DNA of 64,000 bases from a virus, in the IMG/VR virus record IMGVR_UViG_3300009103_001934, positions 64,001-128,000 of that record; one strand, 5' to 3'. Shown piece by piece: positions 6,910-63,547 of the stretch. The notes under the pieces are model-generated. The model saw only the letters and a list, made by a program, of their open reading frames with translations. It did no database searches and was not told the origin of the DNA. A program made the translations under genes and the position numbers. Positions within the stretch are counted from its first letter, which is position 1. Every line of letters begins with the position of its first letter.

Positions 6910-7327
6910 GGGAGCGTACTGGATTCGATTTAGAACCTTACGCCAGATTGCAAGCAGAGGATAATGGTTGGCCTCTTTAAATATCCATTAACAACATATA
7001 TGCCAATAGTGATATTGACATGGAGTTCGCTCCTTCTTTAGCTGAAGCTGACGAGATTCTCGCCAAGTTCGGCTACGTGGAGGAAGAAGAGCTCCAGCTG
7101 GCAGCATAAGTTCTGCCCCGTCCTACTCTGGATGCTCGTTAAGGAGCTAGGGCGTCGACAGCGAGCAAAAAAACTAGGAAGGGTGAGGAGTCTAGGATAA
7201 ATAAAGTGCCTCCAACCTCGTGTGTAGTTGTCAGTGATGAAGCACGAAAAATAACACTGACTAAGCTTGTAGTACATTTGAGCCGATGGCTTTAAAGACG
7301 CGGGTTCGACTCCCGCCGCTTCCACCA
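6910..7327 (+). ncRNA. ssrA: tmRNA
   Basis: GGGAGCG pairs with CGCUUCC-ACCA, giving G3.U70; GGAUUCGA 5' motif; T-arm GCGGGUUCGACUCCCGC; tag ORF 7002-7109 ends in LAA*. Confidence 0.95.
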
Positions 7328-32157: not shown

Positions 32158-33696
32158 ATGAGAGACTTTGAAGGTAGAAATTATATAAACGGAGAGTGGA
32201 GAGCCACTTCAGAAATGTATACCAAAATTAATCCGTCTACGGGTAAAGCTCAGGGAGCGTTCCCCTCGAGTGGGCCAAGTGAGGTAGCTAAAGCTGTACT
32301 GTGTGCGAGAAAGGCCTTTAGAAAATGGAGAAAAGTCAGCAGATTTGTTCGTTCGGATTATATGAATAAGGTGGCGCAATTAATTGAAGAGCGCAGAGAT
32401 AAGCTCGCAAAGGTGATTTCGTTAGAAACTGGAAAAAATTATAATGAATCTATTGCGGAAGTGAATGAGGCCCTACATATGGCCCAATTCGCTTTCGGTT
32501 CTGGCCGCTACCCTCATGGAGAAGCGGTAGCGTCTGAAATTGAGGATAAAGATTCTTATATGCTTCGTAAGCCAAAAGGTGTAATAGCTATAGTAACACC
32601 TTTTAATTTTCCACTAGCTATCGGTATGTTTTGGAATGCCGCACCGGCCCTAGTGGAAGGAAATACGATTGTAATTAAACCAAGTGAAGATGCTCCGATG
32701 TCAACGCAAATGGCTGTCCAAATTTATGCGGACGCTGGTATCCCACGCGGGGTCATTAATATGGTTCACGGTGACGGTACTACTGGTAATCTCTTGGTTC
32801 GTGATGATGTCGATCATATTTGTTTTACTGGTTCTGCCGATGTCGGACAACATATTCGTAAAGTGGCTGCTGAATCTTGGCACAAAACTACCTCCTGCGA
32901 ATTAGGAAGTAAGTCGGCCTGCATCGTTTTCGATGACGTGGAGTTAGACTTGGCCGTGGAAGCGGCGGTAGCAAGCGCATTTAAATTATCTGGACAGAGA
33001 TGCGTTTCTTCTGGACGGATGATCGTTCAAAGGAACATCTTGAATGGGTTCATCGCGAAGTTCGTAGAAAAGGCCTCCAAATTAAAGACGGGTAATCCGT
33101 TTACATCTAATCTCGGTACGTCAGGATGCCCTGACGGTATGGTTTGGGAAGAGTTAGTACCGGATAATAATATTTATTACGGCCCCATAATAAATAAACA
33201 AGGGTTTGAGAAAATAAAAAAATATAACGAGATGGTTAGGGTTGATAGAGATGCTGAAGTCTTACTCGAGCCAAGCTACGAGACAATAAATGATAAAGCT
33301 TTTTATTCGACGCCTATGGTATATAAGAGTGAATGGCGTGGTATTGATGCCCCATATCTCAGGGACGAGGTTTTTGGTCCTCACGTAGCCATTATCCCCT
33401 TTGATACAGTCGAAGACGCGATTCGCATTTATAACGATACGGAATACGGGCTTGCGGTTGGAATCTTGACAAACGACTTCAGGAAAGCTAGGCTTATGCG
33501 GGACGAGTGCGACGCGGGTATGATTTATTGGAATGGTGGTTCTATTGCCGCCGAATCTCATCTTGCTTTTGGTGGTGTTAAGAAGTCTGGAAACGGATTC
33601 CCAAGTGCTGCCAGAACTTTTAGAGCAGTAACCCATGAAATAAGTTGGACGGTTAATCATGCGGATAGATTAACTTTTCCCCAAGGAATGAAATAA
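32158..33696 (+). CDS. Aldehyde dehydrogenase
   Basis: TPFNFP, KPSE, FTGS, ELGSK, GQRC (catalytic Cys), EVFGP, FGGVKKSG. Confidence 0.92.
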   Translation: MRDFEGRNYINGEWRATSEMYTKINPSTGKAQGAFPSSGPSEVAKAVLCARKAFRKWRKVSRFVRSDYMNKVAQLIEERRDKLAKVISLETGKNYNESIAEVNEALHMAQFAFGSGRYPHGEAVASEIEDKDSYMLRKPKGVIAIVTPFNFPLAIGMFWNAAPALVEGNTIVIKPSEDAPMSTQMAVQIYADAGIPRGVINMVHGDGTTGNLLVRDDVDHICFTGSADVGQHIRKVAAESWHKTTSCELGSKSACIVFDDVELDLAVEAAVASAFKLSGQRCVSSGRMIVQRNILNGFIAKFVEKASKLKTGNPFTSNLGTSGCPDGMVWEELVPDNNIYYGPIINKQGFEKIKKYNEMVRVDRDAEVLLEPSYETINDKAFYSTPMVYKSEWRGIDAPYLRDEVFGPHVAIIPFDTVEDAIRIYNDTEYGLAVGILTNDFRKARLMRDECDAGMIYWNGGSIAAESHLAFGGVKKSGNGFPSAARTFRAVTHEISWTVNHADRLTFPQGMK

Positions 33697-55938: not shown

Positions 55939-56179
55939 GTATTTTCTTTAAAACAGTGTAAATAATAATAAGACCTTGCTAAATAAATAAATAAGGCAAG
56001 CTCAACAGGTTATGTTCAAATAAGCTTTGTAGAATAGGTTCGTCAAATATAGAACTGAAATAAAGTAAAAATAAAACAGGCCCAAATAAGGTAAGGTTTA
56101 AACTAAATGAGAGTCAATCTCAACGTCCCTCCTTTATGCTAATGAGACTCATTCTCAATTTCACCGGTCCCGATGTTGG

Positions 56180-56280
56180 CAATCAAAATTCCAAGAAAAT
56201 GATCGACAAACTATTTTGCCGCTCACGAATGATCGACAAACAAATTTGCCAATCAAAATCTTCCCAAAATGATCGACAAA
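56180..56280. repeat. Direct-repeat cluster AATGATCGACAAA x3
   Basis: Copies at 56198, 56228, 56268; CAATCAAAAT at 56180 and 56250. Confidence 0.85.
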
Positions 56281-56297
56281 AAAAAGTAAAAAAAGGC

Positions 56298-56326
56298 TTG
56301 CACTAAAATGGGATGTACGGTATACT
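56298..56326 (+). promoter_or_regulatory. sigma70-type promoter with no downstream ORF
   Basis: TTGCAC-N17-TATACT. Confidence 0.75.
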
Positions 56327-56332
56327 ATTAAA

Positions 56333-56770
56333 ACAGTGAGGGTAACACCTCCACGATCTTTGAGACAATTTAAGAAGGCGACTGTGGTAGTCCTCACGCA
56401 AGTGAGTGCCCTCGCGGGAAAGCCCCCAGTGGAAGCGCGACGAAACTGGACGGTGATACGATACCGGAGGGATGGGGTTCGACTCCTCACGCCCTAACAA
56501 TTTAAGCCTTGGGTGACGGAACAAACGTCCGACAGAGGAAACGGCCCAAGCAATTTTTACTCCGGCGACGGTTGGAGTAAGGGAATGGCTGAATAACCCT
56601 CCATCATAAGGGGTAAGGCACAGGGCCGCGCGTTAGAGTGCAATCGTATGAGGCGCGTGGTTCTGGTAGACTGGTAAACTTGAACTGTATTGTGCACTGG
56701 TCTTGATGGTAATGCAGCAATCCATCTTCCCATTAATTTAGCATAATCCTGAGGTTGGTGAAAACCATTA
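56333..56770 (+). ncRNA. Candidate large structured ncRNA
   Basis: No + strand ORF of 60 aa or more; many helices with G.U pairs, GNRA loops and a TTCGACT T-loop. Confidence 0.65.
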
Positions 56771-56837
56771 AAGAGATATTAAGCAACAACGCCGAAATCC
56801 GCCTCTGATTTTTTTTGCCCTAATGTTAATTTTTTGC

Positions 56838-56871
56838 TTGACACGCCGGGACCGGTCCCGGCGCCTGTCAA
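56838..56871. repeat. GGGACCGGTCCC element 1
   Basis: TTGACA..GGGACCGGTCCC (56848-56859)..TGTCAA. Confidence 0.9.
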
Positions 56872-57137
56872 GCTTTTTTTATTCACAGCCTGTGAGAATT
56901 TCTTAAAAAGGGGCGATTTCTCCGGTGTGAAATTCGGCGTATATAAGAAACTATTTGACCCCATACCCTGCAAAAACAGTGTCAAGCTCAAAAACAATTA
57001 CCCTATATAAACGCATTTAATTAGCCTAATTAAAAAAGATGTGTGTGACGTGCATTTTTTTCTTGCCAGTGATTAGGAAGTGTGAGATAATGGTTTTAGT
57101 CGATTGAGACATAACTACTAACGAAAGAGAACGAACT

Positions 57138-58073
57138 ATGCCTATTACCGCAAAACAAAGCAAAAACAAAGATTGGGATTTCACCGTAGCACAGGAGGAG
57201 CTTTTCCTGCCTGACGGCAAGAAGTCCGGTTTCTTCGCGTCCCGCCGCCTCGACAACAACGAGGTGCTGGGCTGTCACACTAGCCGCTACGGCATCGTCC
57301 AGAATGGCGACCTAGTGGAAAAAGCCGAGAGTGCTTTTCGCCGCAAGGGATTGGGCGATTTTGAGCGCAACATCTATGTGACTGACGGCGGAGCCAAGCT
57401 GCGCGTCAATTACGACTTCCAAGGTCACGATATTGAAGTGCCAGAAGTGGGTGACAAGATGGGCTTTCGCCTGACCTTGCAAAACTCATTTGACCGCTCG
57501 CTGCGCGTGTCCTTTGCGCTCGGTATGCTTCGCCTCGTTTGCACCAACGGTATGCAGACGCTCGAAAAGGAATTGGATATGCTCAAGAAGCACTCCAAGA
57601 ACTTTGACCTCGGCGCGTTGCTGACTGATGACGCAATCGACAAGGCTATGGCTACGTTCACCAACACGGGGAACACATACGCCGCGCTGGCTCGCGTTGG
57701 AGTTACTCAAGAGCAAGGCATCTTCGCCCTGCAAAACCAAGCCAACACTGGTTTGATTTCTGACAAGGTGCGCGAGGGTATCGCAAGCGTGTGGAACAAC
57801 CCACGCGAGGATGGTGCTGACGGTTCGGTTGGTGATGACCGCAACCTCTACCAACTCTACAACGCTGCCACGCAGTACCTCACCAGTGACAACTTGGTTG
57901 ACAAGAAGTCTGGCGATGCTGTCGGCACGTTCGAGTCCACCCGCTTCGAGTACGCGAACCGCGTTAGCTCGCAACTGCTCAAGCGGTTCAACCTCGCCAG
58001 CGACAACCCCAAGCGGTTTGACAAACTGGTTGCGGTTGCCAAGGCTGACGGCGTAAAGGTCGAGAACAACTAG
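57138..58073 (+). CDS. DUF932-family protein
   Basis: Y.IVQN, GAK, L.L.NSFD.S......G.LRLVCTNGM, LY..YNA.T; promoter at 57063-57091. Confidence 0.8.
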   Translation: MPITAKQSKNKDWDFTVAQEELFLPDGKKSGFFASRRLDNNEVLGCHTSRYGIVQNGDLVEKAESAFRRKGLGDFERNIYVTDGGAKLRVNYDFQGHDIEVPEVGDKMGFRLTLQNSFDRSLRVSFALGMLRLVCTNGMQTLEKELDMLKKHSKNFDLGALLTDDAIDKAMATFTNTGNTYAALARVGVTQEQGIFALQNQANTGLISDKVREGIASVWNNPREDGADGSVGDDRNLYQLYNAATQYLTSDNLVDKKSGDAVGTFESTRFEYANRVSSQLLKRFNLASDNPKRFDKLVAVAKADGVKVENN

Positions 58074-58091
58074 GCCAAACCTACAAACACC

Positions 58092-58117
58092 CCCCGCCTT
58101 CGGGCGGGGATTTTTTT
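58092..58117 (+). terminator. Intrinsic terminator
   Basis: CCCCGCC-TTCG-GGCGGGG plus T-run. Confidence 0.85.
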
Positions 58118-58138
58118 GCGATTGTGGAAACTTTTTGC

Positions 58139-58173
58139 TTGACATTCGGCGGGACCGGTCCCGATTTTGTCAA
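58139..58173. repeat. GGGACCGGTCCC element 2
   Basis: Core at 58151-58162 between TTGACA and TGTCAA. Confidence 0.9.
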
Positions 58174-58241
58174 GCTTTTTTTGTGCGTTTGCGAATAACT
58201 TTCTTCTTGACGTAAAAGCGGATGTGTAGTACTATATAAAC

Positions 58242-58478
58242 ATGATGAACGAATTAGATCAACTCAAAGAAGACATTTGCATGAAGAGCTTCGGTCGCAG
58301 CCGAAGTCTCGCGCTAGCCGCAGGGCAGTGTGTTAAGTGTGGAACCTATGACCTCGACTTTCGCGATGAACCATCGCAACGTGAGTACAAACTCACCGTG
58401 TGGTGTCAGTCGTGCCAAGACGATTTCTTCGGGCTGGATTCGGACGGTGAAATCGCATGGGAGGAGGATGAGGATTAA
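58242..58478 (+). CDS. Small Zn-finger-like protein (leaderless)
   Basis: CVKC...CQSC; promoter TTGACG-N17-TACTAT. Confidence 0.65.
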   Translation: MMNELDQLKEDICMKSFGRSRSLALAAGQCVKCGTYDLDFRDEPSQREYKLTVWCQSCQDDFFGLDSDGEIAWEEDED

Positions 58479-58990
58479 TGGATATCGCAAACACACTTAA
58501 GCGCGAGGTCTATCGCAACCTTCACTTCAGGAACGAGACCGTTTATTCTGTACGTAAGGAAGGCCTTGTAGAGGGGCATGCCCTGATGGTCATCATGGAC
58601 GGAACGACTAAGACCCCAATTAAGTTTGCGGTCGGCCCTAAGGGCAACCAGCGCGTACGTGATGAAGAGCGCAAGAACGTGCACGCTGTTATCCGCGGGC
58701 ACATCAACAACGCCGTGTGGTATACAAGTGACATGGATGTGGATGCATTCGAAATGGGTCATGCTAAGGATGCCTGCGAGTACTTTAAAAAACAGTACAT
58801 GATCGAGCGTGAGGGATATCGATGGCTTGAGGTTGTATATAATCCTTACAAGTACCGCACCTTCATGACTCGTGACACGGATCCTTTCAGATCGAATGAA
58901 GACGTCTATGAGCCTATCTTTACCGCTCGCACAGTCATCATCGGCGAGACGTGCTGGGCGCAAGTCCGGGCGGAGCACGAGATGAATTAA
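58478..58990 (+). CDS. Hypothetical phage protein
   Basis: YRNLH...YSVR, KNVHA.IRG, YNPYKY..F. Confidence 0.65.
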   Translation: MDIANTLKREVYRNLHFRNETVYSVRKEGLVEGHALMVIMDGTTKTPIKFAVGPKGNQRVRDEERKNVHAVIRGHINNAVWYTSDMDVDAFEMGHAKDACEYFKKQYMIEREGYRWLEVVYNPYKYRTFMTRDTDPFRSNEDVYEPIFTARTVIIGETCWAQVRAEHEMN

Positions 58991-59006
58991 TATTTTTCCT
59001 CCATCA

Positions 59007-59052
59007 GGCGGGTCCGGGTTTTATGTGTTTGACCGGGCCCGCCTACTTTTTT
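59007..59052 (+). terminator. Hairpin terminator
   Basis: GGCGGGTCCGG...CCGGGCCCGCC then T-run. Confidence 0.65.
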
Positions 59053-59054
59053 GC

Positions 59055-59088
59055 TTGACATTTCGGGACCGGTCCCGCGGCTTGTCAA
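59055..59088. repeat. GGGACCGGTCCC element 3
   Basis: Core at 59065-59076 between TTGACA and TGTCAA; TTATCCACA follows at 59096. Confidence 0.9.
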
Positions 59089-59166
59089 GCTTTTTTTATC
59101 CACAACCTGTGAATTATTTTTTCATTTTTTTCTTGCCTTTTTCTGCTCAACCTGTATAATGCTCGC

Positions 59167-59295
59167 ATGAAGATTAAAGCAAGAGTAAGCAAACAAGGAT
59201 TTATGGGCAGCGCGTCCCGTGAACACAGAGTGAAGAAGGGCAAAGGCTCTTTCACTCGCAAACAAAAACACAAAAAAAGTATTGACACAAACTAG
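59167..59295 (+). CDS. arfA: ArfA-like alternative ribosome-rescue factor (42 aa, not in ORF track)
   Basis: MKIKARVSKQGFMGSASREHRVKKGKGSFTRKQKHKKSIDTN; KKGKGS[FY]xRKxKH motif; leaderless behind TATAAT. Confidence 0.7.
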   Translation: MKIKARVSKQGFMGSASREHRVKKGKGSFTRKQKHKKSIDTN

Positions 59296-59314
59296 GATAT
59301 AGGAGATAATCATA

Positions 59315-59746
59315 ATGATGATGGACGATATAAAACTGACCTACATTCCAGACTCTCACGACTGGATTAAAGTATATTTGCAAGCACCTAACGCAGAACT
59401 TGCCGAGGCGTGGTTTAATTCCTTTTGGAATCACAACGCTACAAGCCAAGACGAGCCAGAATGGATATTCAAAAACGAGTTGGCATTTTGTACCACTTGG
59501 GACAAGCTAACCAAGGCCATGAATGATATTTTTCTTTTCATCCTTCTTAATGATGATGAAGATGCTTTCAAAGGCGAGGAAGGCGGCGCGATGCCGTTTG
59601 CCAAGGAACTAGCCAAGGCCAAGATTGCAGAGATGAACAAAAAAGATTCATCCATGCGCTACGGTCGCCAAGGTCACGTTTACACACTCGGCGATGTTTA
59701 CACCAACGAGGAAAAGTCATTTTCTTCTGGAACGTGCGACGTTTAA
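59315..59746 (+). CDS. Hypothetical protein
   Basis: Promoter TTGACA-N17-GATAAT at 59282-59310. Confidence 0.65.
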   Translation: MMMDDIKLTYIPDSHDWIKVYLQAPNAELAEAWFNSFWNHNATSQDEPEWIFKNELAFCTTWDKLTKAMNDIFLFILLNDDEDAFKGEEGGAMPFAKELAKAKIAEMNKKDSSMRYGRQGHVYTLGDVYTNEEKSFSSGTCDV

Positions 59747-59783
59747 GCTTGACCTTTAACCCTCAAACCTTTATTATACTCTG

Positions 59784-60497
59784 ATGTTGAAATTCAAAGA
59801 TGCAAACGGTAAACTCAAGAAGATGGCAAAGAAGCTTGGCGTTAAGCTTAAAACCTTCACTCTCCCTGCGGGCTATACTTGCGGCGGTGCAAAGGATTGC
59901 CTCGCGTATGCCGACAGAAAAACGGGCAAAGTGAGAGACGGCAAGGAAACACAATTCCGTTGTTTCATGGCATCGCTCGAAGCCACCTTTCCAAGTCTCC
60001 GCGCTATGGTGTGGGAGAATTACGAGCAGTTACAAGCGGCACTGAAAAACGGCGTTGATGCTTGCGCGGATCTGATCCACAACAGCTTGCCAAAGAAGTT
60101 TGACGTAATGCGCGTTCACGTTGGCGGCGATTACTTCAGCAGGGCGTATTTGCAAGCGTGGATTGAAGTTGCCAAGCGAAACCCTGACAAGGTGTTTTAC
60201 TCTTACAGCAAAAGCTTGCACCTGTTCAAGCAATTTGCGTTACCGGAAAACCTTGTGTTGACCGCTTCCCGTGGTGGCAAGTACGATGATTTGATTGACC
60301 TCCACGCATGGAAAGAGGCGATTGTCGTATTCAGTGAAGAGGAAGCGGAAGAGCTTGACTTGGAAATTGACCACGACGATTCACACGCAGCGTTTGGCGC
60401 GGAGAATTTCGCGTTACTCATTCACGGCACACAGCCAGCAGGGAGCGCAGCAAGTGAAGCTTTGAAAGTCATAAAGAAAAAGGCAAGGGCTGCGTGA
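59784..60497 (+). CDS. gp88-like protein
   Basis: F.LPAGYTC.GA..C, CFMA, RVHVGGD.FS..Y..AW, FYSYSKS. Confidence 0.7.
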   Translation: MLKFKDANGKLKKMAKKLGVKLKTFTLPAGYTCGGAKDCLAYADRKTGKVRDGKETQFRCFMASLEATFPSLRAMVWENYEQLQAALKNGVDACADLIHNSLPKKFDVMRVHVGGDYFSRAYLQAWIEVAKRNPDKVFYSYSKSLHLFKQFALPENLVLTASRGGKYDDLIDLHAWKEAIVVFSEEEAEELDLEIDHDDSHAAFGAENFALLIHGTQPAGSAASEALKVIKKKARAA

Positions 60498-60572
60498 TGG
60501 AATTTATTGTCCTTGTTGCCATCGGGTTGTATTTCGGCGCAAAGCTTAGTCGATAAAAATGACATTTTTTGC

Positions 60573-60608
60573 TTGACAGCCGGCGGGACCGGTCCCGCGA
60601 GATGTCAA
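60573..60608. repeat. GGGACCGGTCCC element 4
   Basis: Core at 60585-60596 between TTGACA and TGTCAA. Confidence 0.9.
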
Positions 60609-60701
60609 GCTTTTTCTTTGTTATTTTTTTATTTGACACAAAGTCGGAAGTGGGGTATTATATAAACAGTGCGAACGAACTAACTAAAACTAAAAAAACT
60701 G

Positions 60702-61169
60702 ATGAACAACCTACATTCATATACTAACTACATCACTGGCACAGAACTTGAGAACGGAAAGATTCTCCTGTATGCTGGCAAAACACGCAACGGTATCGAT
60801 GACCGTAAGAAAGGCAAAATGGCTTGCGGATTCATCGCTGGCGTTGGCCTAGATGGTCGTCTGTTTGACACCGTCCATTCTAACACTAACACCAAAAACG
60901 ATAAGCTCACGGAGCAACGTCACATCAACACGATTCGTGCCGTGGCGCAATTACTCCCTGACGTTATCGTTGCTGGTAACACTTATGACGATGGATTTTA
61001 TGGGGGAATCATTTCGTCCATCAGTCCTAGCGTCTACGACAAAGTCGTAAGCTGGGTACAGGGTACGCGCACTATGACAGAAAAGCGCATGGTGGCGAAC
61101 AAGCGAAAGCTGGCTCGAAAGCTCGCTCAAGTGAAGCGAGCTAGGCAAGCAAAGAAGGCTTTGGCTTAA
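60702..61169 (+). CDS. Hypothetical protein
   Basis: Promoter TTGACA-N17-TATTAT at 60633-60661; weak YAGKT similarity to GIY-YIG. Confidence 0.65.
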   Translation: MNNLHSYTNYITGTELENGKILLYAGKTRNGIDDRKKGKMACGFIAGVGLDGRLFDTVHSNTNTKNDKLTEQRHINTIRAVAQLLPDVIVAGNTYDDGFYGGIISSISPSVYDKVVSWVQGTRTMTEKRMVANKRKLARKLAQVKRARQAKKALA

Positions 61170-61269
61170 CCCTAGTAGGGGGGAGAGAGTTTGGCGTGAA
61201 TGCTTCGCCTCTTGAGTGGCTCTCTCCCCTCTTGACTTTTCAACAGAAACCCATTATACTTTTATACTT

Positions 61270-61743
61270 ATGGAGAGAATACATATAATTATTGGATTGA
61301 TAATCTTCTTTATTATTAGCATAACCGCTTCGGGCGATGAAGTCTTAACAAGGGACGAGCGTATTGTTGCACTCACTATACTGGGAGAAGCCCGTGGTGA
61401 AGGTAAAAAAGGAATGTATGCTGTCGCCTGTGTAATTCAGAAACGCGCGTCAGAACGCAACCTCACGCCAGCAAAGGTATGCCACCAACCTTATCAGTTC
61501 AGCATTTGGAACGCTGGAAAGGGTAAGATAAAAAAAGAAAGTGAGTTGTATTATTTGTGGAAATCTAAATCCATGATGTACGCCAGAGAGTTAGCGAGAA
61601 CAGTTTGCAAAGGTAAATTGTTAGATCAAAAATTCACTGGTAACGCAAATCACTATTGCAGAAAAGAAATCAATAACTATTGGACAAAGAAAGGAACAAT
61701 AACAAAGGTAATTGGAAATCATAAATTTTTCAAATTACGATAG
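61270..61743 (+). CDS. SleB-like cell wall hydrolase (Hydrolase_2)
   Basis: Signal peptide, TILGEARGE (catalytic Glu), AVA.VI, QFSIWN, IGNHKF. Confidence 0.85.
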   Translation: MERIHIIIGLIIFFIISITASGDEVLTRDERIVALTILGEARGEGKKGMYAVACVIQKRASERNLTPAKVCHQPYQFSIWNAGKGKIKKESELYYLWKSKSMMYARELARTVCKGKLLDQKFTGNANHYCRKEINNYWTKKGTITKVIGNHKFFKLR

Positions 61744-61772
61744 GCTTCAAATAATAAATCAGTGCAAATATG

Positions 61773-61833
61773 ACCCGTCCCGAATAAGGGGCGGGTTTTT
61801 TTAGGGCAAAAAAAAGGCCCGCTTTCGCGGGTT
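61773..61833. terminator. Back-to-back terminators
   Basis: ACCCGTCCC-GAATAA-GGGGCGGGT plus T-run (+); GAAA-loop hairpin plus T-run on the minus strand (61808-61833). Confidence 0.75.
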
Positions 61834-61837
61834 GTGT

Positions 61838-62044
61838 TTAGCCCTCCAAACTGGAGGGGGTGAAATCACCGTGTCCGGTGATCTCAAGGGCACGCCCGTG
61901 ATCATACTCACGGATATGCTCCTCGCGCATCCGCACGGTGCGACCATCATCCTTGAGGATGAGCCACTTGCCGTGGCGCGGAGAGGCGGCGACCACGCCA
62001 ACGTAACCGTTGACGTCTTCGACTTCCATTCCTAATGTAATCAT
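61838..62044 (-). CDS. Small beta-rich hypothetical protein
   Basis: MITLGMEV...VGVV pattern; ends at the minus-strand terminator. Confidence 0.55.
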   Translation of the reverse strand: MITLGMEVEDVNGYVGVVAASPRHGKWLILKDDGRTVRMREEHIREYDHGRALEITGHGDFTPSSLEG

Positions 62045-62095
62045 AATGATATTGATAGGGCGCGAATTCTTAGGCAGTCGCGCTCGCCCATGATG

Positions 62096-62305
62096 TTAGT
62101 CCTTCCAGACCATGTCCAGATATTCACCGTAAGTAGCAAGGTAATCCTGCCATTCGGTGTCCGTCATTAGCGGCCCATGGATTGCAACCAGATTCGCCCA
62201 ACGATCTTGGGTTTCCTGTTCGCGTGTCCACTCTTCATGCTCAAGCTGAGCTTCGATGTCTGCACTTATGGTCTCTTCTATGGTTGGCATCATGTCGTTC
62301 ATCAT
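62096..62305 (-). CDS. Small acidic hypothetical protein (leaderless)
   Basis: Minus-strand promoter TTGTGC-N17-TATATT; ATG at 62305. Confidence 0.6.
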   Translation of the reverse strand: MMNDMMPTIEETISADIEAQLEHEEWTREQETQDRWANLVAIHGPLMTDTEWQDYLATYGEYLDMVWKD

Positions 62306-62395
62306 TAGAAAGAATATAACACGCATCTAAGAAAAGCACAAGGAAAAAATTCAAAAACTATTAACAAAAAAAATGCAATTGTGAGCAAAAAAGAC

Positions 62396-62455
62396 TTGAC
62401 AGCCGCGGGACCGGTCCCGCTTATTGAGACCGAGTCTCACTAAAGTTGTGAATAA
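62396..62455. repeat. GGGACCGGTCCC element 5 with TGAGA-N5-TCTCA and TGTGAATAA
   Basis: Core 62407-62418; box 62425-62439; 62447-62455. Confidence 0.9.
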
Positions 62456-62498
62456 CTTTCTCCTTGACAATTACATCCTTTTGTAGTATATTATTTAC

Positions 62499-62687
62499 AT
62501 GATGAACGATCCATATAGCCAGATAACCAGCGGAGACCGTGACAACCTGCGTGCGGAGTTTGACGAACAAATGGCGATAATTGACGGCGCGAATAACCCT
62601 GACATGATTTGGGTTCGTGGCACCCTGCCCTATGATGATGAGGGTGTACGGTGCGGGTGCGAAGACTACCCCTGTTGTGGGCATTAG
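62499..62687 (+). CDS. Small protein with C-terminal CGCEDYPCCGH motif
   Basis: Leaderless behind TTGACA-N17-TATATT. Confidence 0.65.
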   Translation: MMNDPYSQITSGDRDNLRAEFDEQMAIIDGANNPDMIWVRGTLPYDDEGVRCGCEDYPCCGH

Positions 62688-62708
62688 TAACTTGTGAGTA
62701 AAAAAGAC

Positions 62709-62764
62709 TTGACAGCCGCGGGACCGGTCCCGTTGAGACTCAGTCTCATTAAGATTGTGAATAA
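62709..62764. repeat. GGGACCGGTCCC element 6 with TGAGA-N5-TCTCA and TGTGAATAA
   Basis: Core 62720-62731; box 62734-62748; 62756-62764. Confidence 0.9.
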
Positions 62765-62815
62765 CTTTTTGAAAAAACCGCTTGACTTTTTGGCATTTAT
62801 GGGTTATATTTAAGC

Positions 62816-63049
62816 ATGATTAAAACGAACATGAAAACTTACAACGTAGAGTTTACGACAGCATTCGCTGGCTCTCCGTTCGTCAACATCGTTCTTGAAG
62901 CCAAGGACGAAAAACAAGCTGAATGGGTTGCCCGTAACCTTTGCCGTTTCGGTTACATTAGCAACATCACAAAAACTGATGAAGTTGCTGCTTTTACCGA
63001 AGAAACTCACGCTTTTGCTTATGATGAAGATTATGAGATTTATTCATAG
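62816..63049 (+). CDS. Hypothetical protein
   Basis: Behind TTGACT-N17-TATATT. Confidence 0.6.
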   Translation: MIKTNMKTYNVEFTTAFAGSPFVNIVLEAKDEKQAEWVARNLCRFGYISNITKTDEVAAFTEETHAFAYDEDYEIYS

Positions 63050-63091
63050 GTGGGACTGCGGATGTCCCACCCAGTATGCTATACTAGACGC

Positions 63092-63547
63092 ATGATAATT
63101 AAGAACGAGATGAAAGAAAAACTAAAACCACTATTTGACCTAGACGGAACCCTTATCCGCGAGGAGCGCGGCTCAGATCGCCTATTTGATTTCCTACGGC
63201 CTCACGCTATTCTTAATCTCACAGAACACGACCTCACTCCTCTCGGAGTGTTAGTCAGAGACTCAGGCAAAGAATTTGACATTCTTACAGCACGCGGCCC
63301 AGAGAATGCGCAGTTTATCCGTATAGCTCTTGAAGCTCTCGGATTCAACGTCGGTCGAATCGTAACCGTAGGCGTAGACATTAACGAGCCAAAGGATTGG
63401 GCTAATGTTAGCAGCAAAAGAGTAGCGGCAAAGAAAATCAGAATTGCCAAATTCGTCCAAAGGAAATTGGTTGACAACGATGCTAGGAATCTGGTAGGAT
63501 TAGGAGAGTTAGGAGAGCTAGTAGCTCAAGACCAAACAGAGTTTTAA
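63092..63547 (+). CDS. HAD-family phosphatase-like
   Basis: FDLDGTL, ILTARG, VDND; extended -10 TGCTATACT. Confidence 0.75.
   Translation: MIIKNEMKEKLKPLFDLDGTLIREERGSDRLFDFLRPHAILNLTEHDLTPLGVLVRDSGKEFDILTARGPENAQFIRIALEALGFNVGRIVTVGVDINEPKDWANVSSKRVAAKKIRIAKFVQRKLVDNDARNLVGLGELGELVAQDQTEF

Follow-up and report, generated by a model that had tools for sequence, protein, structure and literature searches.

The window analysed here, a stretch of 64,000 nucleotides, corresponds to bases 64001-128000 of the IMG/VR virus record IMGVR_UViG_3300009103_001934 (hereafter G000), and its subject is the 12-bp palindrome GGGACCGGTCCC, the core of a module that recurs between small early genes. Positions are given in window coordinates unless marked G000. 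The record comprises 178,487 bp with a G+C content of 40.8% and is rated complete. G000 is an uncultured 178-kb phage with predicted genes for rIIA, rIIB and a RecA/UvsX-like protein. The array of cores is located directly 3' of rIIA/rIIB amid small genes that each have their own promoter, and a manA RNA (Rfam RF01745) adjoins it. A megablast search with the 8-kb region against 50,697 phage records yielded no close deposited relatives, and protein searches reached distant relatives only; for instance, rIIA is 29% identical to a Ruegeria phage protein. The phages that carry the core are uncultured and probably marine, to judge from the many contig names that we read as those of ocean surveys.

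The palindrome is present in six exact copies in the window (Table 1), at the positions reported in a preliminary description of this DNA, and 100 dinucleotide-preserving shuffles gave an expectation of zero copies. Allowing up to two mismatches adds a single, unrelated site at 32253. The entire G000 record contains eight cores, all of which are located in an early-gene region of about 9 kb (G000 120,848-129,811), two of them just past the end of the window. As had been noted before, all six window copies are intergenic, and each is followed by a separate predicted sigma70-like promoter that scores 9-11 out of 12 against the consensus. TTGACA precedes copies 1-6 by 4, 6, 4, 6, 5 and 5 nt, respectively, and TGTCAA follows the core of copies 1-4 after 5-6 nt, both of which agree with the earlier observations. 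Moreover, the partial copy that had been suspected near 56163 is real. The core half CCGGTCCC continues as a decayed right arm (ACCGGTCCCGATGTTGGCAA as compared with ACCGGTCCCGATTTTGTCAA of copy 2), and this decayed module occupies the position at which two related phages (G002 and G003) hold an intact core before the same RNA operon.

The modules come in two forms. Copies 1-4 consist of T5-6-GC-TTGACA, 4-6 nt, the core, 5-6 nt, TGTCAAGC and T7 (TTTTTC in copy 4), and modules 3 and 1 are 87% identical across 69 nt. Copies 5 and 6 have the left TTGACA only, and their core is followed by a second palindrome, TGAGAC-N3-GTCTCA, which leads via TGTGAATAAC to the next promoter. Module 6 is nearly a duplicate of module 5 (41 nt with one mismatch and 36 nt at 86%). 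About 180 bp of non-coding DNA (56880-57060) extend from core 1 to the promoter of the DUF932 cassette, and they are conserved in G002 and G003, where they form part of blocks of 87-89% identity.

Table 1 Junction modules and associated features in the window; promoters are predicted, folds are given as free energy (kcal/mol) and z-score
Feature	Position	Strand	Composition and context	Next promoter and start codon	Fold
Module 1	56830-56880	+	T6-GC-TTGACA, cgcc, core 56848-56859, ggcgcc, TGTCAAGC, T7; arm-core-arm; flanked by the non-coding RNA operon with the manA RNA and by the DUF932 cassette	57063	-28.1; z -6.5; U7 after hairpin
Module 2	58132-58182	+	Arm-core-arm, core 58151-58162; preceded by an independent terminator (58092-58117)	TTGACG 58207 / TACTAT 58230, ATG 58242	-20.0; z -3.9
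Module 3	59047-59097	+	Arm-core-arm, core 59065-59076, then TTATCCACA-acc-TGTGAA; T-run also serves as U-tract of an upstream hairpin (59006-59046)	TTGCCT 59133 / TATAAT 59155, ATG 59167	-18.7; z -3.4
Module 4	60565-60616	+	Arm-core-arm, core 60585-60596; right after a stop codon, without separate terminator	TTGACA 60633 / TATTAT 60656	-24.9; z -3.8
Module 5	62379-62468	.	Core 62407-62418, common to two divergent cassettes; left side, minus strand: core-TGTCAAG-T6, heading the inverted cassette; right side: second palindrome TGAGACCGAGTCTCA 62425-62439, then TGTGAATAA 62447	TTGACA 62464 / TATATT 62487, ATG 62499	
Module 6	62692-62777	+	Core 62720-62731; second palindrome 62734-62748; TGTGAATAA 62756	TTGACT 62782 / TATATT 62805, ATG 62816	z -1.1
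Decayed module	56142-56182	+	Degenerate second palindrome ATGAGACTCATTCTCAAT, right core half CCGGTCCC 56164-56171, degenerate arm		
Two-gene cassette (68 and 76 residues)	61838-62326	-	Inverted relative to G002 and G003; head abuts core 5		
Orphan gene (62 residues, Cys-rich)	62499-62687	+	Between modules 5 and 6		
Second promoter class	63049-63094	+	Pseudo-palindrome GGTGGGAC-TGCGGAT-GTCCCACC, centred about -32, with extended -10 TGCTATACT	ATG 63092	

Counted across relatives, as the preliminary description had suggested, the pattern CTTGACA-N3-7-core is also present in three related phages, that is, in three other IMG/VR contigs with 6, 8 and 9 cores, each set being confined to 9-11 kb. In addition, a metagenome sample of at least 120 stretches with the pattern (362 kb) was collected, in which 179 distinct exact cores stand against about 7 variants in matching context. 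When elements were located by their arms alone, 76 of 77 turned out to have the exact core. Of 154 unique copies, 143 have C/G at the flanking positions -1/+1, and conservation drops quickly further out: the 4-6 nt adjoining the core vary freely, also among the copies of one genome. The proteins encoded beside the cores are 33-99% identical among the four phages. When about 186,000 bacterial and archaeal genomes were scanned, just five single hits came up, in GC-rich metagenome-assembled genomes, which is consistent with chance; thus, the core is not a host repeat. A full-text search of the literature for the motif returned only unrelated oligonucleotides.

Homogenisation by gene conversion was considered as a source of the invariance and was ruled out because the core-adjacent 4-6 nt differ within one genome. 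Indeed, a core of 12-14 bp that is invariant while the adjacent, non-complementary 4-6 nt drift can be explained neither by hairpin stability nor by homogenisation. The invariance rather points to base-by-base reading of the core, most likely by a putative dimeric protein on double-stranded DNA, and recognition at the DNA level is favoured because several copies are located where little RNA is expected.

The cores also mark the places at which the relatives differ. The order of blocks in G000 is X, A (the RNA operon), core, B (the DUF932 cassette), core, C, core, D, core and E, and that in G002 and G003 is X, core, C, core, B, core, A, E, followed further on by core, D and core. In the alignments, the homology blocks stop 6-42 bp from the core centres of both partners. 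For all phage pairs, 44 of 206 block ends are found within 45 bp of a core as compared with 7.1 +/- 3.4 (maximum 23) in 5000 circular shifts, although this statistic is inflated since alignments tend to stop at any conserved island. Orientation changes as well. The minus-strand match of the two-gene cassette ends 30 bp from core 5 in both genomes, and the cassette lies between two cores in G003; with the head of the inverted cassette abutting it, core 5 serves two divergent cassettes. Furthermore, the orphan gene is flanked by 41-bp direct repeats with one mismatch and a core in each, and a search of the three related phages and the 362-kb metagenome sample gave no homolog of it. Of all single cassettes, this gene is most clearly a unit of insertion or excision. 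Cassettes thus differ among the relatives in order, orientation and content, with a permutation, an inversion and an orphan cassette whose joints are at the modules, which supports the cassette boundary, one of the two earlier proposals for the core. Some joints are without a core, namely that of A and E, which abut directly in G002 and G003.

The RNA operon contains a promoter-driven structured RNA without an open reading frame (56298-56815), which ends in a terminator and includes the manA RNA (56558-56736, 77.9 bits). This structured RNA behaves as one of the shuffled units: in G000 it precedes core 1, and in G002 and G003 it follows a core. Just 5' of its promoter there are iteron-like direct repeats (56176-56285), in which AATGATCGACAAA occurs three times and TTG(G/C)CAATCAAAAT twice.

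As RNA, copies 1-4 fold into an interrupted hairpin of 14-16 bp, in which an outer 8-bp stem (GCUUGACA with UGUCAAGC) is separated by an internal loop from the inner stem (C)GGGA-CCGG-UCCC(G) and is followed by a U-run (U7). From this fold and its calculated stability (Table 1) we infer termination: copies 1-4 look like intrinsic terminators just ahead of the next promoter, and the hairpin looks terminator-like in about 38% of the copies. Module 6 is not terminator-like by its z-score. In 32 of 34 arm-core-arm elements with clear flanking runs the T-runs are on the same strand on both sides (symmetric T-arrangement in 2, symmetric A-arrangement in 0), which gives the element a transcriptional polarity, and the strand of the T-runs is the gene strand in the four phages. 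The arms also occur singly on either side of the core. The earlier statement that the copies often come just after a terminator is correct for window copies 1, 2 and 3; over all collected copies, a relaxed criterion detected an independent hairpin with a T-run 5' of about 36% of the upstream-arm sides.

From TTGACA through the core there are 16-18 bp, made up of 4-6 nt and the 12-nt core, so that the palindrome is indeed located where a promoter spacer would be. However, the combination of TTGACA as -35 box and core as spacer was rejected as a promoter. Among 194 arm-bearing sides, a TAnnnT hexamer was detected 3' of the core only three times, by chance and in GC-rich contigs that are not from phages. 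The arms thus resemble -35 boxes but belong to no promoter. A MotA-dependent middle promoter, with a TGCTT box in the left arm, was also considered; no -10 is present, and the Pfam models MotCF and AsiA were not found in searches that had no positive control. As to the separate downstream promoters, the ATG codons at 58242, 59167, 62499 and 62816 begin 5-6 nt past the predicted -10, which leaves no room for a Shine-Dalgarno sequence, and the genes at 57138 and 60702 have leaders. Many downstream genes thus appear to be leaderless, with the ATG about 5-7 nt after the -10, and they would depend on initiation at their own promoter. A -10-to-start block, TA..T-ATAAAC/ATTTAC-ATGATGAACGA, is common to the cassettes at 58225-58252, 62482-62509 and 60651-60678; owing to this block, several unrelated small proteins start with MMNE or MMND.

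A second promoter class (Table 1) follows the pattern GGT(A/G)GGAC-NRCRGAT-GTCC(C/T)ACC with an extended -10, TGnTATACT, an ATG 6 nt on and no -35 hexamer. It is also found at G000 128503, 128978 and about 130136, and in dozens of distinct copies in loci L016-L133, where the orientation of the pseudo-palindrome relative to the -10 and the ATG is consistent. The GGGAC/GTCCC half-sites are common to this pseudo-palindrome and the 12-bp core. The arrangement suggests an activator-dependent, 'middle-like' class.

We propose with moderate confidence that the element is a PeSL-type insulator and recombination junction module with a putative sequence-specific reader. PeSLs are stem-loop terminators joined to strong sigma70-like promoters in the hyperplastic regions of T4-type phages, where they mediate indels, replacements and mini-circles (PMC2839356, PMC4122927); they have been described for RB49/phi1, PST/T4 and nt-1/KVP40 (Arbiol et al. 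2010, PMC2839356; Comeau et al. 2014, PMC4122927). In G000, the core would be the centre of a junction module between early-gene cassettes that each drive their own expression, and the arm-core-arm hairpin with its U7 would insulate them as a terminator just ahead of the next sigma70-type promoter. For the exchange itself we infer general phage recombination as the simplest mechanism, which has also been put forward for PeSLs (PMC2839356, PMC4122927): modules of 40-90 bp would provide repeated, portable homology with which whole cassettes may be swapped, inverted, inserted or deleted with their regulation intact. Since the core is palindromic and many modules are near-palindromic, exchange would be possible in either orientation, and recombinants would stay viable because each exchanged piece has its own promoter and insulator. 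The putative reader may act as a roadblock or regulator, or as a recombination helper. A narrower version, to which we give rather little credence, is that a dedicated putative phage protein, which targets cassette exchange and/or insulates the cassettes, recognises the core and possibly also the related GRGAC-type palindromes P2 and P3. If so, an abundant phage group would run integron-like, promoter-bearing cassettes without a classical integrase, and the question of the PeSL authors about a specific helper protein would be answered.

Several observations weigh against the insulator and junction module, in addition to the inflation of the block-end statistic. Copies 5 and 6 form two small tandem hairpins without a U-tract, and about 37% of the collected copies (core with second palindrome) have no U-tract after the hairpin and are not canonical terminators. 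Copy 5 is located between divergent promoters with nothing upstream to terminate. In 25 elements with a right arm and no left arm, the T7 run is 9-12 nt away from any hairpin. For 58 two-armed elements, the spacers pair over 1.43 consecutive positions from the core as compared with 1.91 +/- 0.14 for re-partnered spacers, and the hairpin energy is -21.8 versus -23.4 +/- 0.43 kcal/mol. Since real spacers pair worse than shuffled partners, hairpin strength or length is not selected, and the element retains its internal loop; a longer hairpin as the target of selection was therefore ruled out. No DNA-binding protein, and no reader for the core, was found among the neighbouring genes; the conserved early proteins of the array have 155, 78 (a zinc ribbon), 143 and 170 residues. 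The T4-type status of G000 is unproven; Pfam Gp23 and Portal_T4 were not found in searches that had no positive control. Finally, the homology blocks end in the palindrome module, unlike the crossovers of the RB49 PeSLs, which were mapped near the -10/ATG (PMC2839356, PMC4122927).

A rival reading is a pure operator. The core would then be the binding site of a global early-gene regulator (repressor, activator or roadblock), with the hairpin and the shuffling as by-products of identical sites in all intergenic spaces, which we regard as possible though unlikely. An operator for a dimeric regulator had also been suggested in the preliminary description; it is plausible, and the invariance, for which structure alone does not account, favours a sequence-specific reader. 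The 14-bp dyad is perfect including its centre and shows no covariation, the spacers are non-complementary, and some copies are in DNA predicted to be untranscribed, behind independent terminators or between divergent promoters. The -35-like hexamers keep a fixed distance of 4-6 bp from the core, be it on one side or on both, and the related pseudo-palindrome with GGGAC half-sites is located at -32 of the second promoter class. Moreover, the distances from the core to the downstream -10 form clusters at 73-76 and 82-85 bp, which differ by about one helical turn, but these clusters are inflated by orthologous copies that are not independent. The core is about 78-97 bp 5' of the transcription starts and thus too far away for steric repression, the polarity of the T-runs is unexpected for a symmetric site, and the neighbouring genes offer no candidate regulator. 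We consider it improbable that the core and its arms are the recognition or crossover site of a specialised recombinase or nuclease, as in an integron-like system of a lytic phage. The breakpoints at the cores, including the inversion at a palindrome and the single-gene unit between direct repeats, would fit such a site, and cassettes taken from core centre to core centre have terminal inverted repeats of about 20 bp (GGTCCC-N5-TGTCAAGC ... GCTTGACA-N5-GGGACC). A 155-residue protein encoded right after copy 4 (60702-61169), which is conserved in the four phages and has a long basic C-terminal helix, carries a weak GIY-YIG-nuclease-like signature (Atlas top hit to a GIY-YIG cluster, 0.91; conserved Y10, Y24-A-G-K-T-R29, E71, H74 and N93). 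However, Pfam, PHROGs and two fold searches gave no support for a nuclease, and the AlphaFold model (pLDDT, predicted local distance difference test, of 72) had no significant Foldseek match, the best VIA match (Z 4.6) being an unrelated fold. Phage_integrase (PF00589) and Resolvase (PF00239) are absent from the complete G000 genome, while the positive controls matched 14 and 12 of 14 genomes, respectively; endonuclease VII was not found in a search that had no positive control. A special enzyme is also not required, since less than 50 bp of homology is enough for T4-type recombination, for which the PeSL authors cite Singer et al. 1982 (PMC2839356). The core-less joint between A and E in G002 and G003 argues in the same direction.

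The hairpin might also act in the transcript, where it would stabilise the 3' end, be a processing site or bind a phage RNA-binding protein, a signal at the RNA level that we think has a small chance of being correct. The RNase III sites of T7, with two stems around an internal loop, would be a model. The two-stem hairpin indeed retains its internal loop, the polarity of the T-runs agrees with the gene direction, and the rare variants GGGACCGGTCCT and GGGTCCGGGCCC are wobble-compatible on one strand. However, the CCGG loop is itself palindromic and invariant, the commonest variant (three copies) breaks the outermost core pair, and single arms occur on either side without a pairing partner. Moreover, little RNA is expected at many copies, which either follow a terminator or have divergent promoters on their two sides. 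It is highly improbable that the core is a selfish palindromic element similar to miniature inverted-repeat transposable elements that has spread through intergenic regions. Short copies with inverted-repeat arms are indeed numerous and nearly identical, and the modular mixes with other small palindromes resemble composite repeat elements. Yet the copies are limited to one region of 9-11 kb in each of the four phages, they are always at cassette joints, and the motif is absent as a repeat from the bacterial and archaeal genomes scanned. No target-site duplication was noticed in the inspected flanks, for which no dedicated test was run, and the domain search, which covered serine and tyrosine recombinases but not the DDE transposase families, gave no match.

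DnaA-box-like 9-mers (TTATNCACA, the DnaA-box consensus) are found in the window at 56879, 59096, 62447 and 62756, and at G000 128741, 129772 and 129840. Seven of the 11 matches in the genome are inside the 11-kb array region, which makes up 6% of the genome. The 9-mer lies within the cassette head TGTGAATAA, frequently as an inverted pair, TTCACA-N3-TGTGAA. The gene at 63092-63547 encodes a 151-residue protein with a DxDGT motif and weak matches to HAD hydrolases (E about 0.04-0.07). This protein is 94-97% conserved in many stretches, which is far above its neighbours, and either promoter class drives the gene depending on the phage. Elsewhere in the window, at 6910-7327, a phage-encoded transfer-messenger RNA (Rfam 125.7 bits) has a predicted 21-residue tag, EADEILAKFGYVEEEELQLAA.

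Several known systems resemble the array in part. Integrons consist of attC sites and gene cassettes, and they share with the array the tandem small, variable gene cassettes that are split by palindromic sites and differ in content among relatives. However, each phage cassette comes with a promoter, the core is invariant in sequence and perfectly palindromic whereas attC is imperfect and conserved in structure, and G000 has no integrase. Intrinsic terminators resemble copies 1-4 in that a GC-rich hairpin precedes U7 and is oriented with transcription. In contrast to the element, they conserve structure; here the sequence is invariant, the spacers are unpaired and at least a third of the copies have no U-tract. 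The KorA/KorB operators of the IncP plasmid RK2 are multi-copy palindromic sites of global regulators. Like the core, they are identical short, perfect palindromes at many promoter regions of one replicon, some of them far upstream, but the phage element has a strand polarity, as seen from the T-runs, and also marks recombination joints.

The comparison with PeSLs, which the preliminary description had drawn, is apt (PMC2839356, PMC4122927). In both cases, an intergenic stem-loop with a G-rich and a C-rich side is located 5' of a strong sigma70-like early promoter (predicted in G000) and is repeated among small early genes; these are non-essential and belong to a hyperplastic region in the PeSL phages and probably also in G000. 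Both coincide with insertions, deletions, replacements and reordering among relatives, and forms with a -35 and a stem-loop but no -10 exist among the PeSLs as well, where they are termed degraded PeSLs. The earlier view that the motif is not a described element therefore holds for its sequence and invariance, but not for the class, which has already been described. A PeSL follows a loose GN-loop-CN consensus, whereas the core is a perfect, invariant palindrome of 12-14 bp in hundreds of copies from diverged phages. Inward-facing -35-like hexamers flank the core at promoter-spacer distance, and a second palindrome is combined with it in a modular manner. Moreover, most of the downstream genes lack a Shine-Dalgarno sequence and are apparently leaderless, and the phage is not demonstrably T4-type.

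The PeSL authors speculated that the conserved GGGG...CCCC stem may be bound by a protein involved in recombination (PMC2839356), and the element described here is the strongest case known to us for a protein reader of a PeSL-type stem. The core provides a short and precise DNA bait for pull-down experiments, and metagenomes can be searched with it to catalogue the cassettes that these phages have at their disposal. As a compact insulator part, the module could also be of use, since it combines a terminator-like hairpin with a promoter and a leaderless start. PeSLs have been proposed as 'linkers' for the swapping of accessory genes in T4-type phages, and here the core of the linker is letter-perfect while its surroundings drift. 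With cassettes shuffled, flipped, gained or lost at it in related phages, the element is an unusually sharp version of the PeSL cassettes.

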